From the sequence record OZ035767.1: a stretch of DNA of 44,816 nt; one strand, 5' to 3'. Position 1 is the stretch's first letter, and every line of letters begins with the position of its first letter. This document shows positions 554 through 44,801 of the stretch, in pieces. Made by a program: the position numbers and the translations under genes. Below the pieces are notes generated by a model that was not told where the DNA came from, did no database searches, and saw only the letters and a program-made list of their open reading frames with translations. The stretch comes from Veterinaerplatzvirus T145P1.

Positions 554-2119
554 ATGTCTTTAGTATGGGAAGAAATGACCATTCAGGAAAAGATGGCGGT
601 TAAGGCGATATCAGAACACAGCTTCGAGGGGTTTCTTCGCTGCTGGTTTTCAATAACGCAAGGCGAGCGATATATCCCTAACTGGCATCACAAATATCTA
701 TGCCGAATTATCGACGAGATTATTGCAGGTGAGCGCAAGGACACTATAATTAACATAGCGCCTGGTAGCGGGAAGACAGAGATCGCATCAATCCACTTCC
801 CGGCCTACTCGATGGTTAAGCTGAAGAAGGTGAGGAACCTTAACATCTCATTTGCTGACTCCCTGGTTAAGCGCAACTCTAAGCGCGTACGTGACCTTAT
901 CAAGTCTCAAGAATTTCAATCACTATGGCCTTGCAAGTTTGGCACATGCAAAGACGATGAACTTCAGGTTCTTGATGAGAGTGGCAGGGTTAGATTTGAG
1001 TCAATATCAAAGGCGGCTGGGGGTCAGATTACTGGTGCTCGAGGTGGTTATATAACAGAAACATATAGCGGAGCCGTTCTATTGGATGATTTTGACAAAC
1101 CCGCAGATATGCTTTCTCCGGTTTATCGAGCTAACAACCACGTAATGCTTAAGAACACAATTCGATCACGTCGCGCTAGCTCTGTAAAGGGAAAGGCAAC
1201 ACCAATTATCTCTATACAGCAGCGCCTGCACGTCAATGACTCAACCTGGTTCATGATGGAAGGCGGTATGGGCATCGAATTCGATTTAATTAAGATACCA
1301 GCGCTAGTTACCGATGATTACATCGATTCACTTCCTGACTGGATTAAAGATCAGTTTGCTGAGGACGTACTAAGCAGTGAATATATTGAGCGAGATGGAG
1401 TAAAGTACTACAGCTACTTTCCTAAAAAGGAATCCGTAAACGACCTGGTGGCAATGTGGGATAGTGACCCGTACACTTTCCTTAGCCAATATCAACAATG
1501 CCCAGTGGCTCTTGGCGGTAACCTGATTAACGTGGATTGGTTCCAGCGTCTTAGTGATACATTCAGGCCTCCAGCTAAGTACGATTACAGATTCATCACA
1601 TGCGATACTGCGATGACTACAAAGAGTTATAGTGACTTCTCCGTGCTTCAGTTATGGGGCTATAAGGATGCTAAGATTTACCTGATAGACCAGCGCAGGG
1701 GAAAATGGGAAGCACCAGAGTTGGAGGCTGAACTGCTGGACTTCGAGAAGAAATCAAGGGCAACCAGTCAGTCAGATGGTATCCTCAGAAGGATTATTAT
1801 CGAGAAGAAAGCGTCTGGTATCGGCCTGATTCAATCAGCTGGCAGGGTTATGCGAACACCGATAGAGCCATACGTACCGGATAACGACAAGCTGACTCGC
1901 GTAATGAGCGCATTGCCACAGATTAAGGCTGGTAATGTCGTTCTTCCAGAGTCTGCGCCGTGGCTAAACGGATTGCTTACTGAGGTTGCTGCTTTTACGG
2001 CAGATGATAGCCACAAACACGACGACCAGATTGACTGTCTAACTATGGCAATCAACCTGGTACTTAACATTGCGGACGACCCCAAAGCGCGACTAATGCG
2101 CATAGCGGGAATTAAATAG
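554..2119 (+). CDS. terminase large subunit (ATPase + nuclease)
   Basis: 521 aa; N-terminal P-loop-like GSGKTE, C-terminal acidic nuclease-like residues; first large gene of a packaging-head-tail module. Confidence 0.8.
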   Translation: MSLVWEEMTIQEKMAVKAISEHSFEGFLRCWFSITQGERYIPNWHHKYLCRIIDEIIAGERKDTIINIAPGSGKTEIASIHFPAYSMVKLKKVRNLNISFADSLVKRNSKRVRDLIKSQEFQSLWPCKFGTCKDDELQVLDESGRVRFESISKAAGGQITGARGGYITETYSGAVLLDDFDKPADMLSPVYRANNHVMLKNTIRSRRASSVKGKATPIISIQQRLHVNDSTWFMMEGGMGIEFDLIKIPALVTDDYIDSLPDWIKDQFAEDVLSSEYIERDGVKYYSYFPKKESVNDLVAMWDSDPYTFLSQYQQCPVALGGNLINVDWFQRLSDTFRPPAKYDYRFITCDTAMTTKSYSDFSVLQLWGYKDAKIYLIDQRRGKWEAPELEAELLDFEKKSRATSQSDGILRRIIIEKKASGIGLIQSAGRVMRTPIEPYVPDNDKLTRVMSALPQIKAGNVVLPESAPWLNGLLTEVAAFTADDSHKHDDQIDCLTMAINLVLNIADDPKARLMRIAGIK

Positions 2120-2162
2120 CACGAATTGCTAAACGCTAGAGCCACGGATGGCGTATAGTTAC
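2117..2162 (+). promoter_or_regulatory. conserved palindrome-promoter element, copy 1
   Basis: ATAGCACGAATTGCTAAA - 22 nt - TATAGTTA; terL stop TAG lies inside the palindrome. Confidence 0.6.
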
Positions 2163-2190
2163 TTCACACCAACAAGAGGAGAAAAGGCAA

Positions 2191-2565
2191 ATGAAAAACA
2201 AATCAAAGGCTTTATATCTTGGAAACACTTATGACGAGTGTTGTGAATTCACGCCGGGAAGAGAGTACGATTGTTACGATCTTGGTGATGGATTTATTGG
2301 TCTTTGCGATGATAATGATACTGAACGTTGCATTAAAAACGGAACGTTCTACAAGTTTAAACTAATCAATGAGGAACATTTTGTAACTGAAACTGAGTGC
2401 GCATCCATGCAGCCTAGCGCCGATAAAAAACCCGAGTTTAGATATTACATCAATGGCGAAGTGGTTACTAAGGTAAAGTTCGACGATACGCTATTATGCG
2501 TCAAGGACTTTGAATCTAGTGGGGTTGATACATCATCAATCAAGTTCGAAGTAAAATTCGAGTAA
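2191..2565 (+). CDS. hypothetical Cys-rich protein (moron-like insertion between terminase and portal)
   Basis: 124 aa, many Cys/Asp; own upstream promoter-like element (2117-2162) and downstream terminator (2587-2610). Confidence 0.55.
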   Translation: MKNKSKALYLGNTYDECCEFTPGREYDCYDLGDGFIGLCDDNDTERCIKNGTFYKFKLINEEHFVTETECASMQPSADKKPEFRYYINGEVVTKVKFDDTLLCVKDFESSGVDTSSIKFEVKFE

Positions 2566-2586
2566 TCAAAAACCGTGTGATAAACT

Positions 2587-2610
2587 AGCCCCCACATGGG
2601 GCTTTTTTTA
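2587..2610 (+). terminator. rho-independent terminator
   Basis: AGCCCC-ACAT-GGGGCT hairpin then T7. Confidence 0.7.
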
Positions 2611-2623
2611 TTGGAGAAATGCA

Positions 2624-3874
2624 ATGGTAAAGACAGACAGCTACGCCAATATCTTTCTCGGCGGCAGTGATGGTAGTGAGATTTACGGGAGCTTACAGAA
2701 TCAGGAGCCTACAATCCTGGCTTCTCTTTATGCGAATAATGCGCTGGTACGTAGAATTATCGACACAATCCCTGAGACAGCATTAGCGGCAGGATTCCAC
2801 ATTGATGGTATTGATGATGAGCCAGCATTTTGGTCGCGATGGGATGACCTGGAAATGACGCAGAATATTAACGACGCCTGGGCGTGGGCGAGATTATTCG
2901 GTGGCGCCGCTATTGTGGCTATCGTTAAGGACAATAGGGCACTAACAAGTGCGGTCAGAGAAGGTGCTGAGCTTGAAACAGTTCGCGTTTACGACCGCAC
3001 GCAAGTAAAAGTACAAACTCGCGAGGAGAATCCCCGTAACGCACGTTTTGGTAAGCCACTAACCTATCGCATCACCACAAATGAGAGCGATATGTTCTAT
3101 GATGTGCACTACAGCCGAATTCACATCATTGACGGAGAGCGAATTCCTAACGTAATGCGTCGGCAAAATGATGGCTGGGGCCGTAGCGTTCTATCCAGTG
3201 ACATTCTTGACTCAATTAAGGATTACACCAACTGTGAACGACTTGCTACGCAGTTACTGAAGCGCAAGCAGCAGGCGGTGTGGAAGGCAAAAGGTCTGGC
3301 TGAGTTATGTGATGATAGCGAAGGATTTGGTGCAGCTCGATTGAGACTTGCACAGGTTGACAACAATAGCGGCGTAGGCCAGGCGATTGGTATCGATGCG
3401 GAATCTGAAGAATACAGCATTCTCAACTCCGATATTGGCGGGATCGATGCGTTCCTGGATAAGAAGTTCGATAGAATCGTTGCCCTGAGCGGTATCCATG
3501 AAATCATCCTGAAAAACAAGAACGTTGGTGGTGTGTCATCAAGCCAGAATACAGCCCTTGAGACATTCCATAAGCTAGTTGACCGCAAACGTAACTCTGA
3601 GTTGCTTCCTATTCTTGGGTTCTTAATCCCGTTCATCGTAAATGTAGAAGAGTGGTCAGTTGAGTTTTATCCTTTAGCTCAGGAATCAAGCAAGGATAAG
3701 GCTGAGATTCTGGAGAAGAACGTAAACAGCATTGCATCACTAATTGCATCTGGCGCTATGAATGCTAACGAGGCGCGTGATACACTACGAGCCATCGCAC
3801 CAGAGATTAAGATTGGTGATGGTGATATTGAAGCTCAACAACAAGAAAAATCAGAGGAGGTTGTGATTGCTTAA
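2624..3874 (+). CDS. putative portal protein
   Basis: 416 aa, positioned between terminase and head genes. Confidence 0.65.
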   Translation: MVKTDSYANIFLGGSDGSEIYGSLQNQEPTILASLYANNALVRRIIDTIPETALAAGFHIDGIDDEPAFWSRWDDLEMTQNINDAWAWARLFGGAAIVAIVKDNRALTSAVREGAELETVRVYDRTQVKVQTREENPRNARFGKPLTYRITTNESDMFYDVHYSRIHIIDGERIPNVMRRQNDGWGRSVLSSDILDSIKDYTNCERLATQLLKRKQQAVWKAKGLAELCDDSEGFGAARLRLAQVDNNSGVGQAIGIDAESEEYSILNSDIGGIDAFLDKKFDRIVALSGIHEIILKNKNVGGVSSSQNTALETFHKLVDRKRNSELLPILGFLIPFIVNVEEWSVEFYPLAQESSKDKAEILEKNVNSIASLIASGAMNANEARDTLRAIAPEIKIGDGDIEAQQQEKSEEVVIA

Positions 3875-3939
3875 ATTAATTGGTTACGGTGGGGGTTAAT
3901 GAATGATGAATTTGATGGCTTTTAGTGAGGAGAATTGGG

Positions 3940-5028
3940 ATGTCTAAAATCCGATATGACAACGCAAAGTTTAAGGCAACAATCGACGAGAATGGATTCT
4001 TAGTAGATACGCCAGTTGTCGCACGTCTCGGCGTGCAAGTCTACTACATGGAGGACGGCCGCACTGTTCGGGAGTTTCGCCCAGCCGAGGAGGTTTTCAA
4101 AGATGAATCTCTAGCGAGCTACCAGGGCAAGCCAATGACCATGGACCATGTTTTCGTTAACTCAGAGAATGCTAAAGAGGTGGTGGTAGGATCGGTTGCT
4201 GGAAAGGCGGAGCCATTAGGCAGCTCTGTAGTTGCTCCAATTGTTATTTACGATAGTGCCGCCATCAAGGAAGCCATGGCAGGTAATGCAAAGGAGTTAT
4301 CCGTTGGATACTCATCAGTTATTGATTACACCCCCGGCTGGGGCGACCCTGTTACTGGCGAGTACTTCCTCAAGTCTGAAAGTGAGCTATTCGACGTACC
4401 AGAAGGATGGCAGGAGTTCGACGCAATTCAGCGTGACATTAAAGTGAACCATCTGGCAATGGTGTATCGCGGTCGCGCAGGCATTGCCAAATTGAATATG
4501 GACGGTGAGCAGGAAAACCCGTATACTACTGACGTTGATATCAATAAAGAGGATAAACAGGAAATGACAGTTAAAATTAAACTCGACGGCGCGCAGGAAT
4601 TTGAGGTCGCCCCGGAAATCGCCTCTCACATCGAAGCACTGAACGCAAAGGCTGACACCGCAATCGCAGAGCGCGATTCTCTGAAAGCTAAAGTAGATGC
4701 AATGCCAGCTGAAATCGAAGCTGCCGTTGCTAAAGCGAAAGCTGATGCTGATGCCCTAGCCGCTCTGGTTGCTGTTGCTGCTGAGGCTGGTGTTAAGGCT
4801 GACGGTCTGGATGCTAAAGGCATTAAAGTTGCTTACGTTAAAGAAGTCTCCGGTCTTGATGTTAGTGAGAAGTCTGACGCATACATCGACGCGGCATTCG
4901 ACATTGCCAAAGAATCTGATAAAATGGCTGAAGTACGTAAAGCAACTACTGCTTCCGACAAATCTGACAGCGCCGATGAGCCTAAGAAATTAGACCCACG
5001 TGCTCGTTTAGCTAAAATTAAGAAATAA
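3940..5028 (+). CDS. head morphogenesis / scaffold-like protein (possible prohead protease-scaffold)
   Basis: Start moved to ATG 3940 with RBS GAGGAG; C-terminal Ala/Lys/Glu-rich predicted coiled coil; synteny with lambda C/Nu3. Confidence 0.5.
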   Translation: MSKIRYDNAKFKATIDENGFLVDTPVVARLGVQVYYMEDGRTVREFRPAEEVFKDESLASYQGKPMTMDHVFVNSENAKEVVVGSVAGKAEPLGSSVVAPIVIYDSAAIKEAMAGNAKELSVGYSSVIDYTPGWGDPVTGEYFLKSESELFDVPEGWQEFDAIQRDIKVNHLAMVYRGRAGIAKLNMDGEQENPYTTDVDINKEDKQEMTVKIKLDGAQEFEVAPEIASHIEALNAKADTAIAERDSLKAKVDAMPAEIEAAVAKAKADADALAALVAVAAEAGVKADGLDAKGIKVAYVKEVSGLDVSEKSDAYIDAAFDIAKESDKMAEVRKATTASDKSDSADEPKKLDPRARLAKIKK

Positions 5029-9259: not shown

Positions 9260-9265
9260 AGCACA

Positions 9266-9288
9266 AACCCTCTTCGGAGGGTTTTTTA
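9266..9288 (+). terminator. rho-independent terminator after major tail protein gene
   Basis: ACCCTC-TTCG-GAGGGT hairpin then T6. Confidence 0.75.
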
Positions 9289-9292
9289 TTGC

Positions 9293-9338
9293 ATAGCACT
9301 TTTTGCTAAAGCGGTTATTCAACTTTGCTGTATAGTTA
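9293..9338 (+). promoter_or_regulatory. conserved palindrome-promoter element, copy 2
   Basis: ATAGCACTTTTTGCTAAA - 22 nt - TATAGTTACC then CATCGAAACGAAA leader. Confidence 0.6.
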
Positions 9339-9369
9339 CCTCATCGAAACGAAATGAGAGATTAAAGAA

Positions 9370-9618
9370 ATGAATAACGTTAAAAACATCATCAAGCTCG
9401 CTGCGGTTCTGTTTGCTTTTTATGCGGTAGTTCAGATTGTAGACCCAACAGGTGAGGCTGATGCCAATAGCAAGGCAAACAAATATACTGTTGAATTTGC
9501 TAAGGCTGAGCGAGCATGTCAGGAGCTTGTAGGTGGCAAAGTTGACCAAATCATGAAATACGGCAAAGAGGTTTGTAAGGACTCGGCTGCTAAGATTGCA
9601 AAAGAAAACACTAAGTAA
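9370..9618 (+). CDS. small secreted/membrane protein (moron-like, own promoter)
   Basis: 82 aa with hydrophobic N-terminal signal-like segment; preceded by promoter-like element 9293-9338. Confidence 0.5.
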   Translation: MNNVKNIIKLAAVLFAFYAVVQIVDPTGEADANSKANKYTVEFAKAERACQELVGGKVDQIMKYGKEVCKDSAAKIAKENTK

Positions 9619-15251: not shown

Positions 15252-15804
15252 TATTAAGTTAGGTCTGTCTCTAGGCCGCAAGTTTGGAAAGATTCACCAG
15301 ATGGCAGTGAATAGCGTGCCGGAGGCAATGAGAGCACTTTGCTCACAGATTCCTGCATTCAAGGAGTTCATGAATAGCCACGTTGGTCAAAATACAAGGT
15401 ACGCCGTGTTCGTTGATGGTAAAAATGTGAACGAGCATCGAATTTCTGATTTTAGTGCCGTTCAGGAGATACGAATCTTGCCAATTCCGCAGGGTCGCAA
15501 GTCAGGCGGCTTGTTTCAGACAATTTTAGGTGCAGCCCTTATCGTTGTTGGTATCTACACTGGCCAGGCTTATCTTGTTGGTGCAGGTATCTCTCTTGCT
15601 GCTGGCGGTGTTGCTCAGTTGCTTTCACCTCAAGCTACTGGGTTGAAAGACCAAAGTAACCAGACAAGTAACAGGGCATCTTACGCATTCGGCTCGGCTG
15701 TAAACACGGTAGCCGCTGGCTACCCGGTTTGCCTACCGTATGGCTATCGAACGGTTGGAGGTTCGGTGTTTAGCGCCGGCTCGTATAGTGAAGACATTGC
15801 TTAA
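15232..15804 (+). CDS. tail assembly protein (lambda I-like)
   Basis: 190 aa with hydrophobic Gly/Ala-rich segment; overlaps K; precedes J. Confidence 0.7.
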   Translation: MTQKLIDIKLGLSLGRKFGKIHQMAVNSVPEAMRALCSQIPAFKEFMNSHVGQNTRYAVFVDGKNVNEHRISDFSAVQEIRILPIPQGRKSGGLFQTILGAALIVVGIYTGQAYLVGAGISLAAGGVAQLLSPQATGLKDQSNQTSNRASYAFGSAVNTVAAGYPVCLPYGYRTVGGSVFSAGSYSEDIA

Positions 15805-15810
15805 ATACCA

Positions 15811-15836
15811 TACCCGCCTAGTGCGGGTTTTTTATT
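15811..15836 (+). terminator. rho-independent terminator
   Basis: ACCCGC-CTAGT-GCGGGT then T6. Confidence 0.7.
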
Positions 15837-15884
15837 TAGTGTAGAATGGCACAAATGATCAAAACAAACATGAGGCTTTGTGAT

Positions 15885-18800
15885 ATGGCTGAAGATATTA
15901 AGATTTATGGTGCTAAGGGTGGTAGCCAGAAGCAGCACCAACCAGTGGAACAAGAAGACAACCTGATTTCATTAAACAAGGTCAAGGTATTACTTGCGGT
16001 TGCTGACGGCGAGGTTGACCCTAACTTCTCAATGAAAGATTTATACCTTGCTGACGTTCCGGTGCAAAACCAGGATGGTAGCTACAACTATGATGGTGTT
16101 CGCGCTGAGTTCCGTGCTGGCACGCAGTATCAGGACTATATCGCCGGGCTTGACGGTGCTAACTCAGAGATTCAGGCATCCAGAGAAATCAAGAACGATA
16201 CCCCGTACATCATTGCGGTTAACAATACTCAGCTTTCAGCAATTCGAGTTAAGCTATTTTGGCCTCGACTGGTTAAGCAAGAAAACAACGGAGACCTGAA
16301 CGGAACAACTTGCGAGTACGCAATTGACCTTTCTGTTAATGGTGGTGCTTACCAGGAATACACTCGCGGAGTTGCTAACGGCAAGACAACTACAGGTTAC
16401 GACCGAAGCATTCGCGTAAACCTTCCGGCAGAGTTTGATAGTGCGCTTGTTCGCATCCGTAAGATTACAGCTGACTCAACGAGCAGCACACTGGTTAACG
16501 GAATGCAGATTACAACCTATCAGGAAGTAATCGACGCCAAATTCCGCTACCCGCTTACGGCTCTGGTCTATGTTGAGTTTGGTTCTGACTTGTTCCCTAA
16601 CGGCATCCCGACAATCTCAATAAAGAAGCGTTGGAAGCTAATTCAGGTACCGACAAACTACGACCCGGAGACAAGGACTTACAGCGGGACATGGAATGGC
16701 TTATTCAAGATGGCATGGTCGAATAACCCGGCATGGGTTCTCTATGACCTGGTGACAAACCGACGCTATGGGCTTGACCAGCGAGAGTTGGGTGTAGAGA
16801 TTGATAAATGGGGCTTGTATGAAGCCGCGCAATTCTGTGACCAGATGGTTCCAGATGGTAAGGGTGGTTTAGAGCCGCGTTACCTTTGCGATATGGTTGT
16901 GCAAAACAAGGTTGAGGCCTACACGCTAATTCGTGATATCTGCTCAATCTTCCGTGGTCTGACTTTCTATGACGGCGAAAAGATTGGCATCGTGGTTGAT
17001 AAGCCTCGCAACCCATCTTACATATTCACCAACGATAACGTTGTAAATGGATTGTTCAGCCGAACCTTTGCCAGTGATAAAAGCCTTTACACCACCGCAA
17101 ACGTTCAGTTTGATGATGTAGAAAACAACTACCAGCAGGATGTTGAGCCGGTATTTGAACTGGAAGCTACTCGCCGATTCGGATTCAATCCTGTCGACCT
17201 CACGGCAATTGGATGCACGAGAAGAAGTGAAGCAAACAGACGCGGCAGATGGCTCCTAAAAACCAACCTGAGAAGCGAAACCATAAGCTTCACTACCGGG
17301 CTGGAAGGCATGATTCCGATGATTGGTGAGGTGATTGCGGTCAATGACGCGGCATGGTCAAGCAACTATCAGTTAAACCTTTCTGGTCGCATTGAATCAG
17401 TTCAGGGATTGCAAGTTTTCACCCCGTTTAAAGTTGACGCAGCGCCGGGTGACAGAATTCTTCTGAACAAGCCTGACGGAAGTCCAGAAGCAAGAACTAT
17501 TGCCAGCGTTTCGGAAGATGGTAGGACAATCAACCTTAACACTGCTTTTAGCTTTGTTGCTCAGCCAGACACGGTATTTGCAATCGACAAGGATAACCTT
17601 GCTCTTCAGCAGTACGTTGTGACCGGGATTCAAAAGGCAGATACTGACGGCTCGGATTCATTCCAGTATACGATTACCGCTGTAGAGTATGACCCGAACA
17701 AGTATGACGAGATTGACTACGGCGTTAACATCGTTGACCGCCCAACTTCAATTGTTGAGCCTGACAGATTGTCGCCACCAGAAAACCTGACCGTGTCAAG
17801 TTATAGTAAGGTTGTTCAGGGCTTGTCGGTTGAGACGATGGTTATCGGATGGGATAAAGCGCCATACGCCAAAACATACAATGTTCAGTGGAGGAAAGAA
17901 AATGGTAACTGGATTAACGTACCAAGAACAGCAAGTACAGAGGTTGATATCGAAGGTATTTACGCGGGAATCTATGATGTTAGGGTTCGCAGCGTATCAG
18001 ATACTGAAAACGTGTCTGCATGGTCTGACATTGTAACGGTATCGCTAACTGGCAAGATTGGTCGTCCATCGGCACCTACGGTTATAACGGCATCAACTGA
18101 TGAAGTATTTGGTATCCGTGTTAAGTGGGGTTTCCCTGATGGCTCTGGCGATACTGCTTATACTGAACTTCAGCAGGTTGCTGATAATGGTGATGGTACA
18201 TACAATCCTGATAACGCAAGTTTGCTTACGTTACTTCCGTACCCAGCCTATGAATACTGGCACACGCCAATTCAGCCAGGCAAGGTTATCTGGTATCGCG
18301 CAAGATTGATTGACAGAATCGGAAATACGTCTGATTGGTCTAATTTCGCAAGAGGCATGAGTACTGACGACGCCAACATTATCAATGATTACATCAAGGT
18401 TGATATTGAGGGTTCTGAAGGATTCAAATACCTCGAGCAGAATGCGATTCAAAAGAATCAGGACATTCAGAATCAGGCAGAGTCAATTCTTGAGAACGCA
18501 TTGGCTAATGATGGTGATGTTCGTCGCATGACCAAGGAGAACGGCAAACGTAAGGCTGAATATGTTCAGGCGGTGAATCTCATAGCCGATGAAACTCAGG
18601 CACGCGTAGAGGCTCTTACGCAGCTTAAAGCGCAGATTGATGATGAGGTTGTTGGTCAGATTGCAACAATTGAAACAGCGCTAGCCACAGAGACAGAGGC
18701 AAGAGCGACAGCCGACACGGCTTTGAGCGCAAGGGTTGGTAATAACGAGGCGGCTCTAAACCAGAAGCTGGATGCTTTCTCTAATGCCACGTCAACTGGT

Positions 18801-19305: not shown

Positions 19306-20274
19306 GTAGAAGTTTGGGATAAATGGAAGTGCCATTGATATGTTCGTGTCGAAAGGAAACTGAGCGCCTGTCTGAGTTGAGTAGTTACCTATTACAGATC
19401 CAGGAACAGCCCTAACGGAGCCTCCAGACATGCAAACACCCTTGTATCGTAAGTTGTTATACCCTCCGGTAACTCTAGTCGTAGCGCCGCACCTAAGCAG
19501 CGGGAAGAAACCACCATTTATTGACTGATATCCATTGCTTATTTGTATAAATCCACCAAGAACGAATGGGCGGCGAACACTTGAAAAAACAATCTGACCA
19601 GAACTATTTGACATTGTGAGTCCAGGCCCGGCCGGTGGTGGTTCATTCCTGAATATCACCAGCTGAACATGGGTACTTGCCGCAACATCATCTGTACCTC
19701 CGTAGGTTATATCCCTACACCATATTGTTGATCCATCTGATTCAAGTGATACGTTTGGATTATCCCACTTGCCGAATGGTATTCCGCTAACTGGTAGCGA
19801 TGCTGCACCGTTAACCTGTATGCCCCCAACCCAGGCCGCAGACATTAGCCGCGAGTTGCTTGATATAGCAAGGAAATCAGTTGAGTTCTCAACAAGTATT
19901 CCAGGACTTGATGAGGATGAAGCCGGTAGTATCTCAAAGCAATTACCAGCAAAGTCAATTATTCGACCATTAGCACCATTGAAGTTGCTGAGAGTTATCC
20001 TGCCAGTTCCGTCATTTACCTTTTGAAACCCGTTCATGTAATAAACTTCGGGTATAACATCGTAAGCGTCAACGTGGACTGCCTTCGTTGGTAGGCAGAA
20101 AGCCGTAGAGCCAGGAGACATTGTCAATCCAAAATCCCACGAGATTGCCGGGGTTGAAAGTCCATTGGTATTTATTGATCCAGTCACAGCAGGTGCCCTT
20201 AATCCTGCCGTGATTTCCATCGCTGGTCTTCCGTCATTGAGGTCAATCAATATACCCTGCGGCATTATTTCCAC
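19303..20274 (-). CDS. tail-associated protein, candidate receptor-binding protein
   Basis: 323 aa Gly/Ser/Asn-rich, convergent to J, co-transcribed with a small lipoprotein; function inferred from context. Confidence 0.45.
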
Positions 20275-20510
20275 TCCTTACTGCCGTGATCTGCAACAGA
20301 ACCGCCGTAACCGCCGCCAGATTTGCTTTCAATGCCAGCGTAGCGAATATCAACCTCACCAGCCGGAACAACTACACCGCCTTTCCACTTAGCTACGCAC
20401 ACGCCGTTTGCTTGTGTTGCACACCACCCATCAGGTCGAGGACCAGAAGAACAACCTACTGTCATGATTACTGCCGCCGAGATGATTGCTGATTTGATGA
20501 AGTTAGTCAT
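20265..20510 (-). CDS. small outer-membrane lipoprotein, Cor/Llp-like superinfection exclusion candidate
   Basis: Start moved to ATG 20510 (RBS AAGGAA); signal peptide with lipobox-like TVGC; about 81 aa. Confidence 0.5.
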
Positions 20511-20546: not shown

Positions 20547-20594
20547 GTAATAATACAACCGTCAGTGCGGAATGTCTTTAGCTATTCGTGCTAT
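20547..20594 (-). promoter_or_regulatory. conserved palindrome-promoter element, copy 3 (minus strand)
   Basis: Reverse complement reads ATAGCACGAATAGCTAAA ... TATTATTAC ... CATCGAAACGAAAC upstream of the lipoprotein gene. Confidence 0.5.
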
Positions 20595-26458: not shown

Positions 26459-26476
26459 ATAGCACGAATTGCTAAA
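26459..26476. promoter_or_regulatory. orphan copy of the palindrome (no canonical downstream -10 box)
   Basis: ATAGCACGAATTGCTAAA, 24 nt upstream of the minus-strand tail fibre start codon. Confidence 0.4.
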
Positions 26477-27504: not shown

Positions 27505-27984
27505 TCAAATCGTGCTGTTTTGCTCTTTCTTCTTTTGGTTCTCTAATTTTATCTTGCGCCATGAACGACACTCTGGCTTAGTGGCTAATTCAGCCTCAGT
27601 GACGACTCGCAGCATATGGCGCTTTTTGCACCGAAGTGTCAGCGGTTTCCCGTTGCCGTCGAATTGCAGGTCTGGTCGGCAGAATGTAGCGCGAAAACCT
27701 TCTCCATTTCGCTTATAGTAGTTGTGAGAAAGTTGAGCCCCACGCGCAGAAATCATACCGCGCTTAAACCATTCTTCTACAGCCTGTGGTGTTACCTTTA
27801 ACTGCTTTGCGATATTCGCCTTTGTGCCGAAGAAATCAAGAACTATCTCTAGCCGCGCGCGTAGCCCGGCTCTTACTTCATCTTTTAAAACATAGTAGCC
27901 TGAAGGTCGTTTACGTTGCTTTTTGTCTTCGGTGCGGATGGTTCCGTTATTGCCGTTAATTGTTCGCTTGTCGACTGTATTCAT
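27505..27984 (-). CDS. HTH DNA-binding protein, putative transcriptional regulator
   Basis: 159 aa, basic; HTH-like segment TKANIAKQLKVTPQAVEEWF; divergent from helicase promoter element. Confidence 0.5.
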   Translation of the reverse strand: MNTVDKRTINGNNGTIRTEDKKQRKRPSGYYVLKDEVRAGLRARLEIVLDFFGTKANIAKQLKVTPQAVEEWFKRGMISARGAQLSHNYYKRNGEGFRATFCRPDLQFDGNGKPLTLRCKKRHMLRVVTEAELATKPECRSWRKIKLENQKKKEQNSTI

Positions 27985-33530: not shown

Positions 33531-33707
33531 ATGACTAAAATGATTTATTGCACCAAAAACAACTCCAAAACGCTGCCATTTACAGTTAACCAGCCGTACA
33601 ATGCAGAGTACCAGGGTGATGGATATTACAAGATTTACGGTGACGATATGACGTGGATTTTAGCGCCGATTGAAGGTTCACTGGTTGAATTTATTATCGC
33701 TGACTAG
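33531..33707 (+). CDS. hypothetical small protein
   Basis: 58-aa ORF after promoter-like element and RBS GAGGAA; followed by terminator. Confidence 0.4.
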   Translation: MTKMIYCTKNNSKTLPFTVNQPYNAEYQGDGYYKIYGDDMTWILAPIEGSLVEFIIAD

Positions 33708-37790: not shown

Positions 37791-37937
37791 GTTTCGTGCT
37801 TTCTCTATCGCCTTGAGCATAATCTCGTGACTTTCCAGTAAGTCCTCTCGGAACCAATCTCCACAAGGCCAGCCTTTTCCGCTATAGGCACTTATGACCT
37901 CGAGATCGAAATAATTTATCTCAGATGGTAATAGCAT
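37776..37937 (-). CDS. hypothetical small protein
   Basis: 53-aa ORF, ATGA-coupled; stop codon lies inside the palindromic element. Confidence 0.35.
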   Translation of the reverse strand: MLLPSEINYFDLEVISAYSGKGWPCGDWFREDLLESHEIMLKAIEKARNSTNC

Positions 37938-42075: not shown

Positions 42076-42122
42076 ATAGCACGAATTGCTAAACCCGCTC
42101 CTGCGGGTTTTGTTATAGTTAG
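42076..42122 (+). promoter_or_regulatory. conserved palindrome-promoter element
   Basis: ATAGCACGAATTGCTAAA - 22 nt containing hairpin CCCGC..GCGGG - TATAGTTA. Confidence 0.6.
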
Positions 42123-42147
42123 TTCACACCAATCGAGAGGTAAGAAA

Positions 42148-43326: not shown

Positions 43327-43456
43327 ATATGTTATCGCATGTGAACGACTGGTCTTTGATATGAAGACTTTTCACTGGTTCATAATTAAGGATTTAGTTA
43401 AGCCTTATAAGAAAGGTGTTATGCCAGAGCAGTTTGTTAAGTCGTTCTACAAATAG
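43313..43456 (+). CDS. hypothetical small protein
   Basis: 47-aa ORF; stop TAG embedded in palindromic element. Confidence 0.3.
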   Translation: MSFTEYVIACERLVFDMKTFHWFIIKDLVKPYKKGVMPEQFVKSFYK

Positions 43457-43498
43457 CACGAATTGATAAACCAGATCGCCACGGATGGCATATAATCA
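43453..43498 (+). promoter_or_regulatory. conserved palindrome-promoter element (variant)
   Basis: ATAGCACGAATTGATAAA - 22 nt - TATAATCACC. Confidence 0.55.
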
Positions 43499-43529
43499 CC
43501 ATATCAATACAACGAGAGAGATAAAGCAA

Positions 43530-43727
43530 ATGAACAACAAATCAAATGAAGTGACAAAGGTTAAATCACATATCGCAGAAAATAATTATGATGAGTCTTT
43601 GGATTTAGGTTTCAATTCAAGAAAAGTAGTTGTTAACGGAATCATGGGTTTTCATTCTCGCTGCGTTATGGCTAAACCAGTTATTGGCTTTGAGTCTCGA
43701 TGCGTCTTTGTTGGTGGAGTCTTATAA
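43530..43727 (+). CDS. hypothetical protein
   Basis: Start moved to ATG 43530 after RBS. Confidence 0.45.
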   Translation: MNNKSNEVTKVKSHIAENNYDESLDLGFNSRKVVVNGIMGFHSRCVMAKPVIGFESRCVFVGGVL

Positions 43728-44775: not shown

Positions 44776-44801
44776 TTAGCCCTCGCTTGAGGGCTTTTTT
44801 T
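44776..44801 (+). terminator. rho-independent terminator
   Basis: AGCCCTC-GCTT-GAGGGCT then T7. Confidence 0.75.

Follow-up and report, generated by a model that had tools for sequence, protein, structure and literature searches.

A repeat-associated, patchily distributed gene between the large terminase and portal genes of Veterinaerplatzvirus T145P1

In the lambdoid phages HK97 and HK022, Juhala, Hendrix and colleagues are said to have recognized morons (a concept also summarized in PMC2839356), that is, extra genes that lie between otherwise adjacent genes and carry a promoter and a terminator of their own. Here, we analyzed a gene that a preliminary description of the sequence had called moron-like: a 124-amino-acid (aa) open reading frame (ORF) between the large terminase (TerL) and portal genes in a stretch of 44,816 nucleotides (nt) from Veterinaerplatzvirus T145P1 (OZ035767.1), hereafter called the window. 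Related arrangements have been described in other phages. T4-type phages have PeSL cassettes, in which non-essential ORFans are bordered by a promoter motif that recurs in intergenic regions, often together with a stem-loop (Arbiol et al. 2010, PMC2839356). In a re-annotation of phage TLS, Kropinski and colleagues (2024, PMC11447400) reported the 21-nt repeat aaATAGCACnnnTTGnTAAAA at 21 places, about 76 nt ahead of start codons, and found it also in T1, Rtp and Rogue1. With regard to the protein, Eremina et al. (2026, PMC13164509) reported that the stand-alone DUF7244 protein of Drexlerviridae accompanies the lysis genes, though not universally, and is found only there, and Zhang et al. (2024, PMC11578894) described Gp54 of phage Bas11 (PDB 9AXB) as a CapRel trigger that is non-essential. 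Our analysis makes it fairly probable that the ORF of T145P1 belongs to a facultative cassette endemic to T1-like phages, and that its product is an intracellular, dispensable binding or adaptor protein rather than a core part of the virion.

We compared the first 6 kb of the window with phage genomes and found 99.9% identity to Veterinaerplatzvirus T145P1 and 82–88% identity to Rtp, JulesPiccard, ACG-M12 and other Braunvirinae (Drexlerviridae); judged by this similarity, the window is that of an Rtp-like (T1-like) Drexlerviridae coliphage. The ORF, which runs over 124 codons from the ATG at 2191 to the stop codon at 2563–2565, is a real gene. A translated search detected homologues of its product in 33 phage records, and 135 records matched the stretch from the 3' end of TerL to the 5' end of the portal gene. 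From these comparisons, about a quarter of the related phages carry the gene, which is thus to be regarded as facultative. Its absence from about three quarters of the related records also means that it is not a structural component conserved in all relatives, the finding that the preliminary description had named as evidence against its own reading. TerL and the portal gene were only about 48 nt apart in OzMSK, DTL, BEK1-1, 12210I, 43 Vienna isolates and Rogue1, and likewise in AHS24, AHP42, JeanPiccard and BEK6. Since such a short junction was seen in most relatives, the synteny comparison bore out the earlier claim of an insertion between normally adjacent terminase and portal genes. Junction states were scored in a spread of 60 of the 135 matching records, about 16 of which contained an ORF-sized insert and about 38 a short empty junction. 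The junctions of IME542 and e4/1c contained HNH endonuclease genes instead, and that of AugustePiccard contained both an HNH gene (2321–2716) and the ORF.

The sequence upstream of the ORF contains a copy of the published repeat (Table 1), which fits the TLS repeat in its consensus, its orientation with transcription and its distance to the ATG; the TAG stop codon of TerL (2117–2119) overlaps the first bases of the motif. A profile built from the copies detected 18 full copies in the window (from 2117 to 43454) and a 19th, at 26460, that lacks the –10 hexamer. The pattern TAGCACNNNTTGCYAAAC matched 20 times in the window, as compared with 2.8 matches expected, and none of 100 shuffles reached 20. 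The copies were co-oriented with the next ORF and lay 68–88 nt ahead of its start codon; the ORFs behind the other copies encode an Erf-like recombinase, a primase, two helicases, a Cor-like lipoprotein, a DUF7244 protein and many small products. All full copies in the window were followed by a TATAnT hexamer 21–23 nt past the repeat, and often then by CATCGAAACGA. We then compared 30 elements, comprising the 18 of the window and 12 from cassettes of other phages. The hexamer contained T in 28, A in 30, T in 30, A in 27 and T in 30 elements at positions 1, 2, 3, 4 and 6, respectively, and the spacer was 22 nt long in 25 of the 30. The two most important positions of a –10 hexamer, A2 and T6, were thus invariant, and position 5 was free. 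A scan for the sigma-70 consensus did not report the element at 2117–2162 because its TTGCTA and TATAGT are 22 nt apart, and canonical sigma-70 matches were not enriched anywhere in the window (8, 25 and 39 matches versus 12, 32 and 37 expected). The promoter that had been proposed at 2117–2162 therefore stands as a genuine, non-chance motif that is carried by the cassette, although with its 22-nt spacing it is not a canonical sigma-70 promoter; the element is plausibly regulatory.

The spacer contains a short inverted repeat that folds weakly (–7.7 kcal/mol, z = –1.3). All 12 external cassettes examined share the leader, which consists of the repeat, the box (g)ccacggatgg(c), TATAnT and GAGAGGAG, the conserved form of the Shine-Dalgarno region of the ORF in the cassettes of relatives. 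Variants of the inverted repeat keep the pairing, as seen in GACA-TGGA-TGTC from the JulesPiccard paralogue and GCTCA-CGGA-TGAGC from the sequence upstream of the AugustePiccard HNH gene. By this layout, the repeat is at about –42, the position at which a class II activator would be expected. Several other readings of the repeat were considered and, by inspection, rejected: a sigma-54 promoter (TGGCAC-N5-TTGC), from which the repeat departs by AG in place of GG and by a spacing that is too short by 2 nt; a T4 MotA box, as the repeat is centered about 7 nt too far upstream; and TTGCTA as a normal –35 hexamer, in view of the 22-nt spacer. A palindrome, TAGCA-N5-TGCTA, at about –42 was weakened as a reading by the variation of its second half (TTGATA, TTGTTA).

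Other copies of the repeat in the window are of interest in their own right. The Cor-like lipoprotein gene (20268–20510, – strand; Pfam Phage_lipoprotein, E = 8e-39) is located downstream of the tail-tip genes, and the syntenic gene of JulesPiccard is annotated as superinfection exclusion. Because the lipoprotein gene sits behind a repeat element (at 20593, – strand), at least one accessory gene of a known kind uses this element. At 42077–42125 and at 37791–37745 (– strand), the spacer between the repeat and the –10 hexamer takes the form of a terminator-like hairpin followed by a T-run (AAACCCGC-TCCT-GCGGGTTT and GCCC-TTCG-GGGC); these combined terminator-promoter elements are reminiscent of PeSLs. 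The closest relative of the ORF leader (2113–2250) within the genome is the leader of the copy at 43454 (43454–43560), and the likeness extends into the first codons (MNNKSN versus MKNKSK), the remaining protein being unrelated. This likeness may be the trace of an old recombination.

Downstream of the ORF, the intrinsic terminator has a 6-bp stem with five G-C pairs and a 5-nt loop, and a folding energy of –13.2 kcal/mol was obtained for its 46-nt context. Phages without the ORF share this hairpin, the T-run and the portal ribosome-binding site (RBS): directly after TerL, the empty sites of OzMSK, DTL, BEK1-1 and 12210I read TAGC-CGTGATAAAC-hairpin-T-run-ATTGGAGAAA-ATG. A terminator has also been annotated by others at this junction in AHS24, AHP42 and CEB_EC3a. 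The hairpin and its T7 run are thus real, as the preliminary description had stated, but they are not private to the gene; to judge from the empty sites, the terminator is resident at the TerL/portal junction and was not brought by the ORF. The late operon contains at least nine + strand terminators, placed where modules meet, for example at 44778–44795 before the small terminase gene (TerS) and after the major capsid gene. The block of TerS, TerL and, where present, the ORF is bracketed by the terminators at 44778–44795 and 2587–2610. Directly before TerS or the portal gene, we found neither a repeat element nor a sigma-70-like promoter. Because the promoter scan found no promoter-like element between the hairpin and the portal ATG, the portal gene would be reached by read-through.

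Table 1. Coordinates of the features of the cassette and its surroundings in the window
Feature	Position	Strand	Evidence or remark
Small terminase TerS	30–536		Gene order
Large terminase TerL (left flank)	554–2119	+	Pfam Terminase_6C, PHROG 38
T1-like 21-nt direct repeat copy, aaATAGCACgaaTTGcTAAAc	2114–2134	+	nhmmer E = 8e-13; 74 nt before ATG
Short inverted repeat GCCA-CGGA-TGGC in spacer	2141–2152	+	Signature of the cassette-family leader
–10-like hexamer TATAGT	2154–2159	+	22 nt downstream of TTGCTA (2126–2131)
Shine-Dalgarno sequence GAGGAG of the 124-aa ORF	2176–2181	+	Read from the sequence; 9 nt upstream of ATG
124-aa ORF	2191–2565 (including stop)	+	Between TerL and portal
Conserved box CCGTGTGATAAAC before terminator	2573–2585	+	Marks the right junction of the insertion
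Intrinsic terminator AGCCCC-CACAT-GGGGCT + T7	2587–2610	+	Terminator scan; hairpin 2587–2603, T-run to 2609
Portal RBS GGAG	2613–2616	+	Ahead of portal ATG at 2624
Portal (right flank)	2624–3874	+	Pfam Phage_portal_3, E = 6e-65
Prohead protease	3925–5028		Followed by head decoration-type gene and major capsid gene
Terminator-plus-RBS element TAAACTAAGCCCCTATATGGGGCTTTTTGTTGGAGAAA	13687–13724	+	gpM/gpL junction; empty in the window, filled in JulesPiccard and contig L014

The homology search and structure prediction that had been suggested for the 124-aa protein placed it in the family PHROG 14592 and gave a fold with an SH3-like domain and a C-terminal domain. The match to PHROG 14592, a small family restricted to Drexlerviridae, covered the full length (E = 1.7e-32, residues 5–124 against positions 2–116 of the 116 in the profile). 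Only 35 relatives were detected by a HMMER scan of 1.84 billion representative proteins, and the cluster of the exact protein comprised 14 members on many contigs. With an alignment of 38 family sequences as input, AlphaFold2 predicted a five-stranded SH3-like barrel as the N-domain (aa 5–59, nt 2203–2367; predicted local distance difference test score (pLDDT) about 71–88), a disordered linker (aa 60–82) and a beta-beta-alpha-beta C-domain (aa 83–123, nt 2437–2559; pLDDT > 90). The N-domain is variable and the C-domain is conserved in the family. Searching Pfam with the 124-aa protein gave nothing at E ≤ 1, and the DUF7244 threshold was not reached; weak matches to DUF7244 were found in 5 of the 38 family members (best E = 0.005), and a few long proteins with tandem repeats of the N-domain matched Pfam DUF6501 and DUF7244. 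An hhalign comparison of the N-domain with the DUF7244 protein of the window (33531–33704) gave a probability of 69% (E = 4.5e-5). The N-domain thus appears weakly similar to DUF7244, which is a resemblance and not a membership. A profile search of PDB sequences with the 124-aa protein yielded nothing meaningful, Foldseek against PDB yielded generic SH3 domains only (E > 0.05), BFVD yielded only uncharacterised phage proteins, and a search of positions 1500–3200 against Rfam yielded no match.

The acidic character ascribed to the protein was confirmed (25 D or E among 124 residues, isoelectric point 4.6); the protein is hydrophilic, and neither a hydrophobic or membrane segment nor a signal peptide was found in it. 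Its description as a Cys-rich protein with about 10 cysteines did not hold: there are seven, at positions 17, 18, 28, 39, 47, 70 and 103, and none is conserved in the family. Because these alignment columns contain Cys in only 3–14 of the 38 members, Cys-richness is a trait of the allele in the window and not of the family.

We further compared the positions of family members in other phages. In JulesPiccard, a second member of the family (bas03_0023) separates the gpM-like from the gpL-like tail gene, a metagenomic contig (L014) contains a member at the same place, and AugustePiccard contains a member between the gpL-like and gpK-like genes; further homologues, down to about 30% identity, are located after TerL. 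In different phages, family members with the leader therefore occupy three alternative sites, namely TerL/portal, gpM/gpL and gpL/gpK. No paralogue of the ORF was found in the window by tblastn. The gpL/gpK site of the window is only a 9-nt gap; in AugustePiccard, the cassette at this site comes with a terminator as well as a new RBS. The inserts are bordered by short direct repeats (the first site has AAATAGC/AAAAGC, the second GTTAA), which is compatible with recombination at short homologies. The domains of the ORF also differ in their relationships. In comparison with contig L015, the DNA identity was 96.7% in the N-domain and 58.9% in the C-domain, whereas in comparison with CEB_EC3a it was 40.3% and 89.9%, respectively; the identity of the leader was 82–90% in all comparisons. 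Because these identities cross over, two N-domain types and two C-domain types have recombined within the linker, and on this pattern the ORF is a recombinant of two lineages. Sequence pairs were either almost identical or both saturated and mosaic. In addition, some alleles point to dispensability. The ACG-M12 allele (407–738) has a frameshift in an A-run of the linker, so that the annotated ORF ends out of frame while the C-domain is intact in another frame, which could be a sequencing error, decay or slippage; and phiEB49 (gp57) and SCS31 match residues 80–124 only.

Several features of the surrounding sequence were observed in the course of these comparisons. Near-identical terminator-plus-RBS sequences (TAAACTAAGCCCCTATATGGGGCTTTTT..TTGGAGAAA) are present at gpM/gpL in the window and at TerL/portal in OzMSK, DTL and BEK1-1 (L004 2117–2167), and both of these junctions are insertion sites for the cassette family. 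On the + strand of the window, sequences similar to TTTATTGGAGAAA occur only at the TerL/portal and gpM/gpL sites. HNH homing-endonuclease genes share intergenic junctions with the cassette family, and one in JulesPiccard (15629–16111) is also preceded by the direct-repeat element. A second moron-like unit lies in the structural operon of the window (9265–9618): a terminator (9265–9284) after the major tail gene is followed by a repeat element at 9294 and an 82-aa ORF (9370–9618), the product of which has a hydrophobic N-terminal segment and matches PHROG 22925, just ahead of the tail chaperone genes. In the gap between the portal and protease genes (3874–3925 in the window), Rtp (rtp24), OzMSK, BEK1-1 and 12210I contain a Mu F-like head morphogenesis gene, which is absent from the window, JulesPiccard, AugustePiccard and DTL; its presence did not correlate with that of the 124-aa gene.

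On the basis of these results, we propose the following interpretation. The cassette consists of the repeat with TATAnT 22 nt downstream, a strong RBS and the 124-aa ORF, and is inserted between the TerL stop codon and the terminator already present ahead of the portal gene. Because no terminator lies between TerL and the ORF, the ORF could be transcribed by two routes, that is, by read-through from the terminase genes and from its own element, copies of which elsewhere in the genome lie ahead of genes for replication, recombination and superinfection exclusion and of small early-type genes. By either route, transcripts would stop or become attenuated at this resident hairpin, and read-through of it would be needed for the portal gene. 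The product is predicted to be a soluble, acidic protein in which a variable SH3-like (DUF7244-like) binding domain is joined to a conserved small C-terminal domain, and it may act in the infected cell, in host takeover or in the interplay with defence. The cassette family would move and diversify by recombination, with three sites in the late operon and with domains shuffled between lineages. A non-structural binding role is suggested by the patchy distribution, the tail-tip paralogues, the kind of genes that share the upstream element and the domain shuffling.

Several points weigh against this interpretation. As regards transcription, PMC11447400 leaves the role of the repeat open, offering a stoperator, an enhancer site or an UP element, so that it is not a proven promoter. 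Host sigma-70 RNA polymerase alone should not use a –35/–10 pair with a 22-nt spacing, and activity of the element would need another factor or a –35-independent mode. If a phage factor were involved, the Cro-like regulator encoded at 27505–27984 would be a candidate. Our literature search found no transcript-mapping paper for any T1-like phage. As regards function, nothing in the homology searches, fold matches and papers ties the protein to defence or host takeover, and the family goes unmentioned in a 2026 paper on sensors of Drexlerviridae proteins. The remaining points concern the virion. PHROGs labels the family "virion structural protein" (category head and packaging), and RefSeq repeats this label. 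A conserved C-domain next to a variable N-domain would also be in keeping with a facultative protein attached to the capsid. Homologues with only about 30–36% identity are still located directly after TerL, and the association with TerL is thus old, which is unexpected for a purely random moron.

These last points could be accommodated if the product were a facultative virion accessory in the manner of Hoc and Soc, with the C-domain docked to the capsid, portal or neck, the SH3-like domain exposed, and expression occurring late together with the terminase and head genes. One GenBank record does name a homologue "putative minor outer capsid protein", and the gene lies in the head module, where read-through from TerL is possible. 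However, no experiment could be traced in the literature behind the label of PHROG 14592. Two virion proteomics papers on T1-like phages list only excised gel bands and do not cover the gene; moreover, the four phages of one paper include AHS24 and AHP42, which do not have the gene at TerL/portal. The gene is missing from about three quarters of the relatives even though their head genes are about 85–90% identical in DNA, its paralogues are located in the tail-tip gene cluster, and the upstream motif otherwise precedes non-structural genes. The frameshift in ACG-M12 and the C-terminal-only matches in phiEB49 and SCS31 also fit poorly with such a role. To the extent that it can be read from genomes, this distribution argues against a core virion role, and we consider even a facultative one unlikely.

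It was also considered that the cassette might be selected for its action in cis, in which case an extra promoter-like element about 470 nt before a leaky terminator would raise the transcription of the portal and head genes, and the ORF would be a passenger. The head genes do appear to rely on read-through, given the terminator before TerS and the lack of a promoter-like element between the resident hairpin and the portal gene, and the leader (82–90%) is better conserved than most of the ORF. However, most relatives manage without the cassette, and the same cassettes precede tail-tip genes. Moreover, the ORF seems to be under selection of its own, because it shows conservation at the protein level, in-frame indels and a confident fold over 38 diverged members; we therefore regard this explanation as distinctly improbable. 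Still less probable, by a little, is that the ORF is useless, selfish or decaying DNA that is kept by easy recombination of cassettes. The allele of ACG-M12, the C-terminal remnants in phiEB49 and SCS31, the patchy distribution and the HNH homing endonuclease genes at the same junction would all be expected in that case, but full-length, well-conserved copies that keep the domain pattern occur in many lineages, even where identity has fallen to about 30%, and the exact protein forms a cluster with 14 members on many contigs.

A classic lambdoid moron, in the sense of foreign DNA that arrived by illegitimate recombination with its own sigma-70 promoter and terminator and that alters host physiology, is suggested by the insertion between genes that are adjacent in relatives, by the promoter-like element and terminator at the borders, and by the G+C content of the ORF (38.1%), which is lower than that of the neighboring genes (46–47%). 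This value ranks only 11th lowest among 72 ORFs, however, and falls among the values of the small accessory genes of the phage itself, which the ORF resembles. The explanation is already contradicted on two defining points. The terminator is resident, and the promoter-like element, which is non-canonically spaced, is a copy of the repeat that belongs to the phage family. The protein family was seen in T1-like phage contexts only, with the 35 representatives mentioned above. Since both the protein family and the promoter motif are, as far as their occurrence goes, endemic to T1-like phages, a foreign origin is unsupported. Drexlerviridae are virulent phages, and expression from a prophage is therefore not applicable. 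We accordingly judge a classic moron to be very improbable. The least probable explanation is that the product helps lysis or binds the cell wall, as might the stand-alone DUF7244 protein, for which a lysis role was proposed, only as a hypothesis, in PMC13164509: the N-domain is SH3-like and weakly DUF7244-like, but a signal peptide and membrane segment are absent, the gene is away from the lysis genes, and the window already contains a stand-alone DUF7244 gene at 33531–33704.

A broader form of the interpretation, which we offer tentatively and consider rather doubtful, is that T1-like phages possess a PeSL-like system of cassette shuffling, in which units of repeat, accessory ORF and terminator-RBS recombine among fixed sites of the late operon. 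The family of proteins with an SH3 domain and a C-domain would then be one cargo of this system, a domain-shuffled effector in an arms race with host defences, and the repeat with its –10 hexamer at the fixed 22-nt distance would define a class of promoters dependent on a phage or host factor that binds at about –42.

Part of what we describe was already known, namely the exact protein in public genomes (where it is unnamed or hypothetical), the published repeat and the PHROG family. Modestly new are the –10 hexamer at a fixed distance of 22 nt, the two-domain fold, the mosaic within the gene and the observation that the repeat travels with the cassette among three sites. The analysis also provides corrections, in that Cys-richness is not conserved, the terminator is a standing feature of the genome and the label "virion structural protein" has no traceable experiment behind it. 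The accessory genes of virulent model coliphages are a recurrent source of anti-defence proteins and defence triggers, and a domain-shuffled SH3-type protein in the BASEL phages JulesPiccard and AugustePiccard is a candidate that can be tested cheaply. The repeat with its fixed-distance –10 hexamer, traveling with the cassette, may prove more useful than the gene, as it makes the transcription organization of T1-like phages directly testable.

We finally compared the locus with the systems introduced above. A specific relationship with Bas11 Gp54 was rejected, as there is no detectable sequence similarity and the structural score is no better than those of generic SH3 domains; Gp54 is a six-stranded single domain that shares only the fold class with the 124-aa protein. 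The stand-alone DUF7244 proteins are similar in being small SH3-type beta-barrels that belong to the "shell" gene content and are sometimes encoded beside HNH endonuclease genes, and the stand-alone DUF7244 gene of the window is also located behind a repeat element. In contrast to them, the 124-aa protein is below the Pfam threshold, has an extra conserved C-terminal domain and is encoded in the structural operon; this two-domain family of the structural operon is not mentioned in PMC13164509. The agreement with the TLS repeat is close with respect to consensus, orientation, distance to the start codon (about 76 nt in TLS and 74 nt in the window) and copy number (18–21 in TLS versus 18 full copies and one partial copy in the window). 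However, PMC11447400 describes the 21-nt part only, whereas the full copies in the window add TATAnT 22 nt downstream, and the facultative cassette of the window begins, at its 5' end, with the repeat.

With the lambdoid morons, the cassette shares an extra dispensable gene, promoter-like and terminator borders and a G+C content lower than that of the neighbors. It differs from them in that the terminator did not arrive with the gene, the family's own repeat, and not a generic sigma-70 promoter, makes up the promoter-like element, the gene family is endemic, the phage is virulent and thus without prophage expression, and the flanks of the cassette are conserved. An own terminator, as in a moron, was found only in the paralogous gpL/gpK cassette of AugustePiccard. 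The unit therefore works like a moron but fails the definition with respect to the terminator and foreign origin. As in PeSL cassettes, the differences in presence and absence between close relatives map to the motifs, and the inserts carry their own expression signals and leave the neighbors undisturbed. On the other hand, the motif and the phage family are different, the motif of T145P1 lacks the canonical –35/–10 spacing, its right flank is a terminator-plus-RBS sequence and not a second full motif, and the sites of the T145P1 type lie inside the late structural operon rather than in hyperplastic early regions. The left flank of the cassette is a full motif with a short inverted repeat, and the (G)ATAAAC box in the right flank resembles the end of the motif, as judged by eye only. 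By analogy of arrangement, the PeSL cassette of T4-type phages appears to be the nearest mechanistic analogue of the cassette in T145P1.

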